Virus record (IMG/VR): IMGVR_UViG_2740892234_000011
DNA length: 6,206 nt
DNA from: a virus
Taxonomy: Duplodnaviria; Heunggongvirae; Uroviricota; Caudoviricetes
Direction: 5' to 3' (one strand)
In this document: positions 1,868 through 5,981 of the stretch, piece by piece
Layout of the letters: every line of letters begins with the position of its first letter
Position numbering within the stretch: the stretch's first letter is position 1
Translations under genes and position numbers: made by a program
Notes under the pieces: generated by a model
Seen by the model: the letters and a program-made list of their open reading frames with translations, nothing else
Told to the model about the DNA's origin: nothing
The model's database searches: none

Positions 1868-2023
1868 TTACTCCTCAGGTTCGTAAGCTGTGAAGACAGC
1901 GACCTCCGTCTGGCCGGTTCGGATTCGTACCTCGCAGAGGTCTTTCCTCGTTACCAGTGCCGTCACTATGACGGTTAAACAGATGACGATCAGGGCGATT
2001 AACATCGCCTTTTGCTGCTTCAT
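1868..2023 (-). CDS. hokD: Hok/Gef-family type I toxin, 51 aa, HokD/RelF-like
   Basis: ATG 2021-2023, TAA 1868-1870: MKQQKAMLIALIVICLTVIVTALVTRKDLCEVRIRTGQTEVAVFTAYEPEE. Single TM helix plus conserved C-terminal RKDLCEV..TGQTEVAVF..YE as in Gef/HokC and HokD. SD AAGGAG 9 nt upstream. Family is certain; the hokD-versus-hokC paralog call is from memory. Confidence 0.85.
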   Translation of the reverse strand: MKQQKAMLIALIVICLTVIVTALVTRKDLCEVRIRTGQTEVAVFTAYEPEE

Positions 2024-2080
2024 AGCCTGCTTCTCCTTGCCTTTCGGCACGTAAGAGGCTAACCTACGTTTGTGAAGCAT
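1868..2080 (-). CDS. mok-like reading frame, 70 aa, in-frame N-terminal extension of hok
   Basis: ATG at 2078-2080 gives MLHKRRLASYVPKGKEKQA followed by the complete Hok sequence, the same arrangement as mokC/hokC in E. coli K-12. Confidence 0.5.
   Translation of the reverse strand: MLHKRRLASYVPKGKEKQAMKQQKAMLIALIVICLTVIVTALVTRKDLCEVRIRTGQTEVAVFTAYEPEE
2037..2065 (+). promoter_or_regulatory. Putative sok antisense promoter
   Basis: -35 TTGCCT (2037-2042), 17-nt spacer, -10 TAACCT (2060-2065), antisense inside the mok N-terminal codons. Arrangement mirrors what I recall of the R1 sok promoter; not verified. Confidence 0.4.
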
Positions 2081-2290: not shown

Positions 2291-2319
2291 ATTCTAACTA
2301 TCCAATAGATCAATGCCAA
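2291..2319 (-). promoter_or_regulatory. Promoter of the hok mRNA
   Basis: On the minus strand: -35 TTGGCA (plus 2314-2319), exact 17-nt spacer, -10 TAGAAT (plus 2291-2296), about 7 nt upstream of the inferred hok mRNA 5' end near 2284. Confidence 0.6.
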
Positions 2320-2671
2320 CTTCTTTTCCTGCAACATCTCTCATCATAAGTGACCCAAATTCATCCAATCAGCACAAAAGAAACATTTAAAGCGTGAATG
2401 CTACCGAACGTTCATTTCAATTACATCGTTTTGATTTTTAACAGTTTTCACCTCAACAAATCAAATGGCATTAGCATTCATCATGGAAGAAAGACTGATA
2501 AAAATGATCATTTTCAATGACTTATGATCACACCGGGTATTGCCAAGTCATTCCTTTTACGCCAGGATACCCACAAGTGAGTAGTCGAGGAGAGTTTGCC
2601 AATTTTTGCGATATAAATTTCAATGTCCGAAGAACCATTAATTGTTAATTGATTCTGTATAAGGTATTAAC

Positions 2672-3769
2672 ATGACAATTTCATATATTCCTATTCTGAA
2701 AGCGAAACGTTCTGAGTTATCAGCTTTATCGCAGCTATCCATTGAAAAGAAATCAAAAATTTTGCCATTACTCGAAATTGAACCAGTGCCAATTGACCCT
2801 GATTCAGGTATTGCCTTAAAGAGTTATAACGAGACTCTTATAGAGTTCGGAAAGAAAGTCTCAAAATCTTGCTCAGATATGCAAGGTGTTTATATTGATG
2901 GATTATTAATTGAAGAGCATTTTATTTCTCCTGAAGATCATTACCCTATAATAAATGCGGTTAATCAAGTTAGAGATATGGGGATAAGAGTTATTCCTGT
3001 CAGTTCACCAACTCGCCCATCTAACTATAAAAGAGCGATTGATGAATTAATGCAGAATGAAATATGCTTGAGATTAACCACGTTAGATCTGGTTAACCCA
3101 CAATTAATAACGCATTACATTAATCATCTGGGAATTCCTTTATCAAATATTGATATAATTATTGACTTAAGAGATGAGTTAACCGAGGATAAAATTAATT
3201 CCGGCGAACTATATACTTTGGCAATGGGATTGATAAACAATCTGGCGCACCTCAATGAATACAGAAAAGTGATTCTTTCTGGGGGTTCATTTCCTACAGA
3301 TCTCAGTGATATTTCTGTTGGTCTATATTCTCAACCTCGAATCGAGTGGATTTTATGGCAGAGTTTAATGAATAGAAAAGAACTTGCCAGAAATGTGATT
3401 TATAGTGATTATGGAGTACAGCACCCCGACTTTAATAGGCTTTCGACGCGATTCCCTAGCGTATCTGCCAGCGTCAGATACTCTGGAGATAATGACTTTT
3501 GGGTATTTCGAGGAAGAGTAGCTAATCGCTTTGGTTATGAACAATATGGTAAACATAGTGAGGATATTCTTGCTCATCGAGAATATTCAGGGCCTACATT
3601 CTGTGCGGGAGATAGAGACATAGAATATTATGCAAACGAGTATCAAGCCTACAAAGCCAATCCCTCTGGTAACTATAAATTTGGTAGCCCAGAGGTATGG
3701 CGTAGGATTGGGCAAAACCATCACATAACTAAGGTTGTTGAGCAACTCGCCACTCTTTACGGGCTTTAA
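2672..3769 (+). CDS. Hypothetical protein, 365 aa, no family confidently assigned; candidate component of a two-gene defence module
   Basis: Single long ORF, ATG 2672 is the first start after an in-frame TAA at 2660-2662, stop TAA 3767-3769; AAGG 7 nt upstream. AT-rich codon usage unlike the flanking genes. Soluble-looking, only 3 Cys, no obvious Walker, HNH, HEPN or PD-(D/E)xK motif. N-terminus MTISYIPILKAKRSELSAL. Confidence 0.85.
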   Translation: MTISYIPILKAKRSELSALSQLSIEKKSKILPLLEIEPVPIDPDSGIALKSYNETLIEFGKKVSKSCSDMQGVYIDGLLIEEHFISPEDHYPIINAVNQVRDMGIRVIPVSSPTRPSNYKRAIDELMQNEICLRLTTLDLVNPQLITHYINHLGIPLSNIDIIIDLRDELTEDKINSGELYTLAMGLINNLAHLNEYRKVILSGGSFPTDLSDISVGLYSQPRIEWILWQSLMNRKELARNVIYSDYGVQHPDFNRLSTRFPSVSASVRYSGDNDFWVFRGRVANRFGYEQYGKHSEDILAHREYSGPTFCAGDRDIEYYANEYQAYKANPSGNYKFGSPEVWRRIGQNHHITKVVEQLATLYGL

Positions 3770-4307
3770 GTTTAACTCGAACAGCTTCACGAAGCTCGCC
3801 AACATCCATACTATTGGCGAGTTTTGACCATAAGACGCGTTTAGGTTTATTTTTCAAATTCTGTAGCTCCCCTACATCACTTAATAGGGAAAGCAATTCA
3901 TCTTTCCAAAGAAGCATTGTTAAGGAAAGTTTGTCCACTTGTGGATTCAACTTGCTAGTTCGAATTGTTTTTAAATGGATACCTTGCCGTGCACCTTGCG
4001 TAACTTGCTTTATCCCCCACCATGATGGAACTATGCTTAAAGCATCATAAAGATGGCAATCAGAGACAACCAAAGTTACTTTATCCATCACTGATGAGTA
4101 ATGTTGCACCTGCGCTGGTAATCTGAGCAAGTTATCACTCTTGCTCTTCAACTCATAACCATGTATAAGCCCATTGATCACTGCTATATCAGCTCTGCTA
4201 GCCCCTAGATTCATCGTAAACTCATCAATGATTAGGGTGTCAGGATCTTTATGATGATCTCTCAGAATCTTGGCATGCACAGCCTTTCTTACATCAATGT
4301 CTCTCAT
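3729..4307 (-). CDS. Hypothetical protein, 192 aa, with a PD-(D/E)xK nuclease-like signature; candidate effector of a two-gene defence module
   Basis: ATG 4305-4307 is the first start after an in-frame TGA; stop TAG 3729-3731. N-terminal region ...TLIIDEF TMNLGASRADIAVINGLIHGYELKSKSD gives E29, D40, E52-x-K54 in alternating hydrophobic strands, typical of the restriction-endonuclease fold. The C-terminal half looks helical. The 3' end overlaps the 365-aa CDS by 41 bp. Confidence 0.8.
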   Translation of the reverse strand: MRDIDVRKAVHAKILRDHHKDPDTLIIDEFTMNLGASRADIAVINGLIHGYELKSKSDNLLRLPAQVQHYSSVMDKVTLVVSDCHLYDALSIVPSWWGIKQVTQGARQGIHLKTIRTSKLNPQVDKLSLTMLLWKDELLSLLSDVGELQNLKNKPKRVLWSKLANSMDVGELREAVRVKLKARKEWRVAQQP

Positions 4308-4612
4308 ACCATAGTTGCGCTTTCATCGACTCTCTCAAGCCATGATTCTATATCATGGTTCGCATGAATGCCATTTGATATGACCAGTGGTTAAACATTG
4401 CACAGAAAAGTGGATGTGTATTTTAACAAAAGCAATGACGGCTAACCATGTTGGTATGTCGATAAAATGTTTCAACGTAAGCATTATCTGTTCCGCCCTT
4501 TCAGACGGTCTCCTGATGTTCTGAGGGTGCAGAATCCCTCCGGTTAAGGATTTAATAAAAATCGTTTCTGATTTAAATCTTCAGTATTTAGTTGTTAGTC
4601 GGTTTATAGCCT

Positions 4613-4924: not shown

Positions 4925-5171
4925 TTCTGTTCTCCCACGTTTTCAGACTTTCACCACAGAACGGACAAAATGAAACCCGAACTGGTAATTTAGAAAATTC
5001 ACCGGAACGCAACATCACAAAATCAGGACCGCGAGTTAAACTCTCATTCCAGATTTTGTATATCAGCAGACCTTTTCGCATCGTGTATTCAGCATCATGC
5101 TCAAGGGACTTTGCCAGTGCTGCACATGGTTCTATCTTGTTGCCATTAACCTGGCATTTTGATTCACTCAC
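4917..5171 (-). CDS. Hypothetical small Cys-containing prophage protein, 84 aa, possible zinc-ribbon
   Basis: MSESKCQVNGNKIEPCAALAKS...VSFCPFCGESLKTWENRNE with Cys at 6, 16, 69 and 72 (CPFC). Its start overlaps the Ren-like stop by 4 nt. Confidence 0.65.
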   Translation of the reverse strand: MSESKCQVNGNKIEPCAALAKSLEHDAEYTMRKGLLIYKIWNESLTRGPDFVMLRSGEFSKLPVRVSFCPFCGESLKTWENRNE

Positions 5172-5590
5172 CGCACCACCTCCTCAAAATTCCCCTGATA
5201 AAACGCCAGTACGCGCTGCATAACTTCGCTCTTCCGGCACTCGAGACAGATTATGTTCAGACGCCTGTCGTAGCGGCGTATTTCGCCATCTGGTAATGAC
5301 CAGATAAGGTCCGGATCAACCGCAGATGGTTTCTTCAGCTTTGCCCTTGAGAGTTTTTTGCGGGCATTTTGCCAGTCTTTACGAGCCTGTTCAGACGGGA
5401 ATAACCCGTAGCCAGAATTGTATACATCGCCACTGGCAACCAGCTCTCTGGCCAGAACGCTCATCAGATATCTTGTTGCCCCAGTTTTAGTTTCCAGTTG
5501 TCGTAACGTCTCGCGCCCACTCTGGCGTACGAGTTCAACAACCTGCCCTTTAATTTTTTCCCGCTCTTCTTGTGTAAAAACTTTTGCCAC
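5168..5590 (-). CDS. Lambda Ren-like protein, 140 aa
   Basis: GTG start 5588-5590 with AGGAGG 4 nt upstream. The C-terminus CLECRKSEVMQRVLAFYQG resembles the lambda Ren C-terminus FKECRQSAAMKRVLAVYG as I recall it, and ETKTGATRY resembles Ren AALTGATV. Position downstream of replication genes matches lambda ren. Confidence 0.7.
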   Translation of the reverse strand: MAKVFTQEEREKIKGQVVELVRQSGRETLRQLETKTGATRYLMSVLARELVASGDVYNSGYGLFPSEQARKDWQNARKKLSRAKLKKPSAVDPDLIWSLPDGEIRRYDRRLNIICLECRKSEVMQRVLAFYQGNFEEVVR

Positions 5591-5737
5591 AAGCCCTCCT
5601 GAAAATTACCCCATGACCTGAAATCTGTTACCCTCTGAATCCCGGCGGAATTTCGGTGTCCGGTTCAGAAATATGATTAACACAACGCTGGTTGTTCGTG
5701 CCGCTTACCGGGAGCAACCAGGGGTTTNNNNNNNNNN

Positions 5738-5971
5738 CTCCTGCTCTCACGACAAATTATGTTCTGGTGCCTGTCGTAGCGGCGTATTTCGCCGTCTGGT
5801 AACGACCAGATAAGGTCCGGATCAACCACTGCAGGTTTCTTCAGCTTTGCCCTTGAGAGCTTTTTACGGGTATTTTGCCAGTCCTTACGCGCCTGTTCAG
5901 ACGGGAATAACCCGTAACCAGAGTTGTATACATCGCCACTGGCAACCAGCTCTCTGGCCAGAACGCTCATC
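5738..5971 (-). CDS. Partial CDS: internal fragment of a second, diverged Ren-like gene copy, bounded by N-gaps on both sides
   Basis: Translation MSVLARELVASGDVYNSGYGLFPSEQARKDWQNTRKKLSRAKLKKPAVVDPDLIWSLPDGEIRRYDRHQNIICRESR parallels residues 44-120 of the 5168..5590 product with several substitutions. Confidence 0.45.
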
Positions 5972-5981
5972 NNNNNNNNNN

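Follow-up and report, generated by a model that had tools for sequence, protein, structure and literature searches.

A 41-bp antiparallel overlap between a Beta family gene and a cII-like (sce7726) gene: conserved register across bacterial phyla and dual coding

When two genes converge so that each ends inside the other, is the overlap a by-product of where two stop codons happen to fall, or has it been maintained by selection, and does it connect the expression of the two genes? Antiparallel coding overlaps in bacteria are usually young, poorly conserved and limited to a few bases. Here, we examined an overlap of 41 bp in IMG/VR virus record IMGVR_UViG_2740892234_000011 (Caudoviricetes), of which the whole stretch of 6,206 nucleotides that was analysed is called the window below. 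In this window, a gene for a Beta family protein of 365 amino acids (aa) and a gene for a 192-aa protein of the sce7726 family, similar to cII of P4, meet tail to tail. An earlier note, made from the sequence alone, had drawn attention to this junction and proposed that antisense or transcriptional-interference coupling might hold a toxic nuclease in check. We found that conserved residues of both proteins are encoded on the same nucleotides, in a register held across more than 10 phyla. The parts of the junction are listed here in window coordinates.

2672-3769, plus strand: Beta family protein gene, 365 aa, predicted TIM barrel (open reading frame (ORF), Pfam, PADLOC, RefSeq, AlphaFold and Foldseek).
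3729-4307, minus strand: sce7726/P4 cII-like gene, 192 aa, PD-(D/E)xK nuclease-like (ORF, NCBIfam, PADLOC, motif and fold).
3729-3769, both strands: 41-bp convergent (3'-3') overlap, in which codon position 1 faces 1, position 2 faces 3 and position 3 faces 2.
3716-3757, plus strand: conserved Beta C-terminal motif N-H-H-x-T-x-V-V-x-Q-L-x-x-L (sequence alignment).
3747-3770, minus strand: conserved cII-like C-terminal motif L-K-x-R-x-x-W-R, L180-R187 (alignment).
3744-3760, both strands: dual-constrained core, in which Beta Q358-L359-A360-T361-L362 faces cII R183...W186-R187.

According to the ORF list and a reading of the sequence, the Beta gene stops with TAA at 3767-3769 and the cII-like gene with TAG at 3731-3729, which gives the tail-to-tail overlap of 3729-3769. 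The RefSeq/PGAP annotation of Escherichia coli 2013C-3264 contains the identical pair of coding sequences with the identical 41-bp overlap, and the length first proposed is thus borne out by both the ORF coordinates and an independent annotation. The segment was also said to hold the last 13 codons of each gene. It contains, per gene, the last 12 sense codons, the stop codon and 2 nt of the thirteenth codon; the count is right with the stop included, not as 13 amino-acid codons.

Both products belong to recognizable families. The 365-aa protein, named 'beta family protein' in RefSeq, matched Pfam PF14350 (Beta_protein) with 178.3 bits (cutoff 27), its residues 5-356 lying on profile positions 1-341 of 342. 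Its match to PADLOC profile PD-Lambda-2_C (PDLC03983; E 1.8e-41) was far better than that to P4-type beta (PDLC02985; a weak match, E 2.1e-4 over 37 residues), and no NCBIfam model, sce7725 (NF033831) included, matched it at E <= 0.01. The AlphaFold model (predicted local distance difference test score (pLDDT) 92.2) has alternating beta and alpha elements, for which Foldseek returned TIM barrels only, with low template modelling (TM) scores; a long C-terminal helix (residues 340-362), confidently modelled, extends into the overlap. The 192-aa product ('sce7726 family protein' in RefSeq) matched NCBIfam NF033832 (sce7726) with 191.1 bits (cutoff 70) over residues 1-184 of 192 and PADLOC 'cll' (PDLC02989) with an E-value of 2.4e-28. 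Its residues D40, E52 and K54 (codons 4188-4190, 4152-4154 and 4146-4148, minus strand) are invariant in an alignment of 34 homologues and correspond to the PD-(D/E)xK motif. The top PDB match of its model (pLDDT 93.7) was SfsA (probability 0.99, E 1.5e-2, TM 0.39), with splicing endonucleases, XPF and Can2 ranking next. With a weak-to-moderate fold match, the protein is best described as PD-(D/E)xK nuclease-like, and 'toxic nuclease' is a putative label that draws solely on this motif and fold.

Is the overlap a local peculiarity? The alignment of the 34 cII-like homologues was used to fetch 80 loci from GTDB contigs (one genome per species), and both genes were located in each locus, Beta by phmmer. 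Beta was found in 78 loci, and in all 78 it was convergent with the cII-like gene. The genes overlapped in 76 of the 78 scorable genome pairs, by 11-167 bp, and all overlap lengths were 2 mod 3, which corresponds to a single relative frame. The possibility, named in the earlier note, that homologous loci lack the overlap is contradicted by these counts. Overlap was absent from L011 (39-bp gap) and L012 (14-bp gap); locus numbers are given where loci have to be told apart. A sce7726-type gene adjoins the Beta gene in the window and in 78 of 81 related loci. Among the three loci without a Beta match, two lie at contig ends (one of them retaining the last 17 residues of Beta in place) and L010 is genuinely without Beta. 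The loci come from more than 10 phyla, including Pseudomonadota, Myxococcota, Acidobacteriota, Bacillota, Chloroflexota, Patescibacteria, Melainabacteria, Gemmatimonadota, Desulfobacterota/Thermodesulfobacteriota and Armatimonadota, with cII identity to the query down to 39% and Beta phmmer E-values up to ~1e-13. On IMG/VR viral contigs, the genes were convergent in 77 of 79 cases and overlapping in 75 of 79, again in one frame.

It should be noted that L010 (Xenorhabdus koppenhoeferi), with its cII-like gene at 4001-4561 and no Beta homologue up to 2.8 kb downstream, is the sole such case of the 81 loci. In the neighbouring species X. vietnamensis (L011), the C-terminus of Beta is degenerate, beside the 39-bp gap.

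The register was measured as the spacing from the invariant cII Trp codon (W186, 3750-3752) to the invariant Beta His codon (H351, 3722-3724).

25 nt: 68 of 79 loci.
28 nt: 3 loci.
49 nt: 1 locus.
64 nt: 4 loci, an enterobacterial group.
65 nt: L012.
66 nt: L011.
336 nt: P4.

The in-frame variants retain the ORF overlap, and the out-of-frame variants are those without it. On inspection, the 39 nt of extra spacing in the 64-nt group contained no obvious repeat of the shared core. On the basis of its conserved orientation, frame and register, we consider that the overlap is an old and selectively maintained feature, neither local nor accidental.

The constraint on single bases was assessed by counting nucleotides at each position of 59 unique sequences stacked in register. 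To the left of about 3744, conservation is seen at Beta codon positions 1 and 2 only and Beta third positions are free, and to the right of about 3760 it is seen at cII positions 1 and 2 only. Within 3744-3760, bases constrained only by Beta alternate with bases constrained only by cII.

3744: A in 57 of 59; second position in Beta, third in cII; constrained by Beta.
3747: T in 58 of 59; second position in Beta, third in cII; constrained by Beta.
3748: C in 55 of 59; third position in Beta, first or second in cII; constrained by cII.
3750: C in 59 of 59; second position in Beta, third in cII (W186); constrained by cII.
3751: C in 57 of 59; third position in Beta, first or second in cII; constrained by cII.
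3752: A in 56 of 59; first position in Beta, first or second in cII; constrained by cII.
3756: T in 49 of 59; second position in Beta, third in cII; constrained by Beta.
3760: C in 58 of 59; third position in Beta, first or second in cII; constrained by cII.

Position 3750 is fixed by cII despite being a cII third position because Trp has TGG as its only codon. In 58 of 59 sequences, cII Arg187 is written as CGA or AGA, a choice limited by the third base of this codon, which also serves as the second base of Beta Leu/Ile359. Conversely, a C closes Beta codon 359 in 55 of 59 sequences and codon 360 in 57 of 59 because those bases serve cII Arg187 and Trp186. A switch between Ala (GCC) and Ser (TCC) at Beta residue 360 is at the same time a synonymous CGA/AGA switch in cII Arg187, and the codon of Beta residue 361 begins with A, which faces the T of cII TGG. 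Such interleaved single-gene constraints indicate that the shared DNA is translated in both frames, each of which is under purifying selection, and it is nearly certain that the coding overlap and its dual coding are real. As the same nucleotides, 17 in all, carry conserved residues of two proteins in a register held across more than 10 phyla, the locus provides a clean natural case of dual-coding constraint, of which the Arg codon confined to CGA/AGA by the partner's Leu is an example.

An annotation artefact, in which one ORF ends upstream or is no gene at all, might be suspected on the ground that the last 5 cII-like and the last 3 Beta residues in the window, which lie past the conserved cores, are unconserved, and that the extreme C-termini of both predicted models have low confidence. 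We regard it as very improbable. Both proteins match curated families over nearly their full length; the invariant cII-like residues K181, R183 and W186 and the near-invariant or conserved Beta residues L359 and L362 fall within the overlap; and each gene freezes synonymous sites of its partner. The presence of conserved K181, R183, W186 and R187 in the overlap also means that the tail of the 192-aa protein is translated and that it has no earlier true stop, a point on which the proposal of coupling had depended. On the Beta side, H351 is invariant and H350, I352, T353 and L359 are conserved in at least 90%. The Beta motif codons face the cII-like stop at 3729-3731 and the variable cII-like tail from 3732 on, and most codons of the cII-like motif face the stop codon of Beta and the variable tail before it. 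The partner's variable tail on either side of the core simply reads on to the first available stop, and the likeness among cII tails is the antisense shadow of the Beta N-H-H-x-T-x-V-V-x-Q-L helix.

One interpretation of the shared bases is a genetic interlock: essential codons held in common would make the genes inseparable, so that losing one inactivates the other, as a fail-safe for a potentially harmful effector. It is compatible with the presence, in the shared 17 nt, of residues conserved in either protein, with the travel of the module on mobile elements (prophages, P4-like satellites and plasmids) and with the restriction of a cII-like gene without Beta to one locus, L010. However, this argument is purely inferential, and the harmfulness of either protein is putative. 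In addition, L042 has no residue following the Trp and the Trp itself is missing in three loci, which suggests that the extreme cII C-terminus may be dispensable, and lineages with separated genes persist. On balance, an interlock of this kind appears improbable.

Does the overlap also act on transcription? Since there is no DNA between the genes, there can be no intergenic terminator, and a full-length mRNA of either gene is partly complementary to the other. If each transcript reaches its own stop codon, convergent transcripts are necessarily complementary, and this structural premise of the earlier note is sound. Its statement that no intergenic terminator exists is correct in that intergenic DNA is zero and a consensus scan found no terminator at the junction, but it overlooks a terminator-like hairpin of the Beta transcript inside the cII-like ORF. 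This hairpin and a promoter-like site on the opposite strand are the candidate transcription signals.

3790-3826, plus strand: candidate intrinsic terminator or 3' hairpin of the Beta transcript (RNAfold, dG -16.8 kcal/mol).
4345-4374, minus strand: candidate promoter-like site upstream of the cII-like gene, ATGGCA-18-TAGAAT (consensus scan, 9 of 12 matches).

The hairpin has a 13-bp stem and an 11-nt loop, with UUUU within and after its 3' arm, and it lies in cII-like codons 161-173; the window region downstream of the Beta stop has a z-score of -4.5 against dinucleotide shuffles. Given its position inside the gene, termination there would shorten the antisense overlap of the mRNAs and would not abolish it. 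In the family as a whole, a simple search for intrinsic-terminator patterns past both stops gave 7% and 18%, compared with 3-6% in controls. This search missed the hairpin of the window because its U-run pairs into the stem, and it was replaced by minimum free energy (MFE) and z-scores for the first 130 nt past each stop, compared with control segments.

Beta sense, 130 nt past the Beta stop: mean min-MFE -16.6 kcal/mol, mean z -1.84, z below -2 in 46%.
Beta sense, controls deeper in cII: mean min-MFE -11.8 and -11.5 kcal/mol, mean z +0.26, z below -2 in 4%.
cII sense, 130 nt past the cII stop: mean min-MFE -12.7 kcal/mol, mean z -0.24, z below -2 in 11%.

The Beta-sense segments differed from their controls (Wilcoxon, p ~4e-7 for MFE and 1e-7 for the composition-controlled z), and no hairpin enrichment was observed in the 130 nt past the cII stop. 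The position and sequence of the Beta-side hairpins vary by lineage, which argues for repeated selection of the structure, and a T-rich tail follows 22 of 72. Thus, a 3' hairpin of the Beta transcript inside cII has probably been selected repeatedly, and it is probably a terminator.

A palindromic coding hairpin was also observed in the cII-like gene of other lineages. The conserved peptide R-G-L-K-S-K-P-R (cII-like codons 149-156; window equivalent 3840-3863) is encoded in many lineages by a near-perfect inverted repeat (CGT GGC TTG AAA AGC AAG CCA CG, for example in L003, L007 and L008), which is not found in the window (NLKNKPKR). Third-position complementarity in this repeat was weakly above the shuffle (1.05 versus 0.82, p ~0.01, with relatedness uncontrolled).

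The surroundings of the locus suggest the direction from which transcription would arrive. The prophage is of the lambdoid (Rac/Qin-like) type, and the locus is flanked in it by replication/nin-type genes on one side and by hokD-rusA-Q on the other. In E. coli 2013C-3264 (L001, 4668-13122), the early-right operon (cro to the Q antiterminator) and the cII-like gene read in one direction and Beta in the other, so that antiterminated lytic transcription must run through Beta head-on.

The satellite phage P4 gave PADLOC its names 'beta' and 'cll'. A related arrangement is found in the non-essential P4 region gop-beta-cII, which shares both protein families with the window ('beta family protein' and 'sce7726 family protein') and whose beta (+) and cII (-) are convergent as well, as has been known since 1990. 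It differs in having a gop toxin gene (+, Gop of 133 aa) upstream of beta, of which there is none in the window, and in its cII, which at 264 aa has a long extra C-terminal region compared with the 192-aa protein. The P4 genes also do not overlap; a 27-bp gap between them holds an annotated rho-independent terminator of cII. Ghisotti and colleagues are said to have reported in 1990 that mutation of this terminator makes P4 temperature-sensitive, an effect attributed to reduced beta expression, a result that our text search did not recover. A terminator at the P4 junction, like the reported effect of its mutation, agrees with the view that transcription reading through from cII into beta may matter. 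In PADLOC terms, the cll component of gop_beta_cll is present in the window and gop is absent, and the window Beta is nearer to PD-Lambda-2_C than to P4 beta. The P4 system confers defence against the phages lambda and P1, and Gop becomes toxic when beta is absent (Rousset et al., 2022).

Taken together, the 41 bp form the common 3' end of an old module made of a predicted TIM-barrel Beta and a PD-(D/E)xK-like cII/sce7726 protein. The best overall explanation that we can offer adds to this that the overlap couples the regulation of the two genes. For that explanation as a whole we see an even chance, and the coupling itself is at best evenly poised. Under such coupling, each full-length mRNA would carry sequence complementary to the partner gene. 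Beta transcripts would probably stop 20-60 nt into the cII-like ORF, at a hairpin (3790-3826 in the window), and cII-sense transcripts, without a recognisable terminator, would run antisense into Beta, with head-on collision of polymerases between the two transcription units. Read-through of the early-right operon in the prophage would do the same to Beta. The likely result would be that cII-sense transcription dampens Beta in cis, mainly in this one direction, as polymerases collide and/or RNase III cleaves the 3' duplex, by which the ratio of Beta to cII protein would be tied to the transcriptional state of the element.

The overlap may instead be a frozen structural accident without a regulatory role, which arose once as the genes extended into each other and was kept since both C-terminal motifs share about 17 nt, with embedded or Rho-dependent termination and a negligible antisense effect. 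We consider this account possible, though somewhat doubtful. The tails past the cores are unconstrained and end at the first stop, which leaves overlaps of widely different length (11-167 bp). Lineages with separated genes exist, of which at least P4 is functional, and changes of anchor spacing have been few (about 5 in-frame and 3 out-of-frame events). By RNAalifold, 56 sequences in register gave no consensus RNA structure in or beside the overlap. On the other hand, convergent orientation is retained in every locus, those without the overlap included, and the strand-asymmetric enrichment of hairpins past the Beta stop, in non-homologous sequences, suggests selection on transcript ends. The P4 terminator sits precisely at the junction. 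A passive extension of the tails set by GC content was rejected as well, as passive read-on predicts a correlation between overlap length and GC content and none was observed (rho 0.13, p 0.32).

Besides the lack of a consensus RNA structure, several further points weigh against regulatory coupling of Beta and the cII-like gene. The overlap has been lost in P4, L011 and L012, and P4 gop-beta-cII, with its genes uncoupled and a terminator between them, still defends, which indicates that the overlap is not indispensable. In the enterobacterial group with 64-nt spacing, the conserved cores are separated and a short ORF overlap is kept. In a consensus scan, promoter-like sites in the region were no more numerous than in shuffles. 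The known toxin of P4 is Gop, not cII, which bears on the toxic-nuclease part of the proposal. Moreover, the fixed register could persist merely since a duplication is required to part two essential C-termini with 17 nt in common, and the convergent orientation may be due to single-gene inversions being rare, not to selection.

A more far-reaching version of coupling would make the overlap a selected control device of a widespread and largely uncharacterised TIM-barrel plus nuclease defence core: head-on transcription would shut down Beta and switch the module on, and the shared codons would interlock the genes so that neither is lost alone. The trigger for the shutdown of Beta would be either transcription from the nuclease side or the operon of an invading or induced phage. 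We consider this version, its trigger included, unlikely. If it were true, the overlap would rank with the most ancient conserved segments of antiparallel dual coding known from bacteria and would represent a new regulatory logic in defence. Head-on control, if true, would account for the P4 cII terminator mutant and provide a testable activation mechanism for systems without a known trigger; if it is false, the locus still illustrates the evolutionary lock-in of an overlap.

The comparison with known defence systems also bears on the composition of the module. Component C of PD-lambda-2 corresponds to Beta, and the window protein matches it as strongly as does the Beta of a locus with the full A-B-C set; components A (HigB-like) and B (helix-turn-helix-peptidase) are absent from the window. 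Component C is needed for defence, not for toxin neutralisation, and the system as published has three genes, with a convergent cII-like partner unmentioned (Vassallo et al., 2022). Among 80 related loci, 13 have PD-Lambda-2 A and B directly upstream of Beta and a cII-like gene that overlaps Beta convergently. In one of them (L019, 4001-7122), PD-Lambda-2_A matched with an E-value of 9.6e-41 and PD-Lambda-2_B with 2.5e-150, and the cII-like/Beta overlap is 158 bp; the others are L037, L041, L043, L046, L051, L057, L058, L073, L075, L076, L079 and L081. Judged from these gene neighbourhoods, three-gene PD-lambda-2 often has an unlisted convergent fourth gene. No third gene is conserved across all loci, PD-Lambda-2 A/B being present in a subset only. 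Upstream of Beta in the window, 2230-2671 contains no ORF of at least 50 aa on the plus strand, the largest having 43 aa. By its gene content, the window locus is a two-gene form, the core of gop_beta_cll and PD-lambda-2 with full membership of neither, and the defence module would thus be redefined as Beta plus a cII-like nuclease, the common core of P4 gop-beta-cII and PD-lambda-2. As for the NCBIfam sce7725/sce7726 pair, the 192-aa protein is a member of sce7726, whereas its 365-aa partner belongs to Pfam Beta_protein, not to sce7725.

Control by convergent units with overlapping 3' ends is established for the type I toxin-antitoxin systems par/Fst-RNAII and TxpA-RatA, for excludons and for RNase III processing of overlapping 3' untranslated regions. 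At the DNA level, the geometry here is the same, convergent units with complementary 3' ends, through which one unit could lower the output of the other. In contrast with type I toxin-antitoxin systems, the locus encodes two conserved proteins (365 and 192 aa) rather than a small hydrophobic toxin and a non-coding RNA, and its complementary segment is itself dual-coding, with a register conserved across phyla. The protein families and the convergent arrangement in P4 were already known. In the literature, we found no description of the overlap, its fixed register or its dual coding, and articles that name sce7725, sce7726 or PF14350 contained incidental mentions in which the gene arrangement was undiscussed.

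Some minor observations concern the neighbourhood of the locus and the record itself. A hokD type I toxin ORF (1868-2080, minus strand) with a sok antisense RNA (RF01794, 2018-2284, 108.8 bits, the match spanning a run of N) places an antisense-controlled toxin about 400 bp from the Beta start; in an Rfam search of the window, this sok was the only match. The window contains six runs of 10 N (426-435, 870-879, 1447-1456, 2154-2163, 5728-5737 and 5972-5981), which are flanked by near-duplicates (for example, 2085-2153 and 2174-2243, 1340-1446 and 1780-1876, and 5168-5727 and 5738-5971). It looks like joined alternative copies of lambdoid-prophage segments and not like a single contiguous stretch of natural DNA. 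No N occurs in the Beta/cII region (2300-4560), which matches complete genomes end to end: it is 100% identical to E. coli 2013C-3264, and of the 93 complete E. coli genomes with a coverage of 80% or more of the region, 92 have an identity of at least 99%.

With respect to recent movement of the module, its copy in the assembly of the actinomycete Nocardiopsis yanglingensis (L069) is nearly identical to those of Stenotrophomonas (L056, L060, L063, L067 and L071), which points to recent transfer or contamination. A tblastn search of phage records with Beta returned, beyond phage Rac-SA53, only distant matches in Gordonia phages, P4 beta being too divergent for this search. In Rac-SA53 (KU052037.1, 14652-17687), the Beta/cII region is 99.6% identical and is divided in two by an IS1 insertion.

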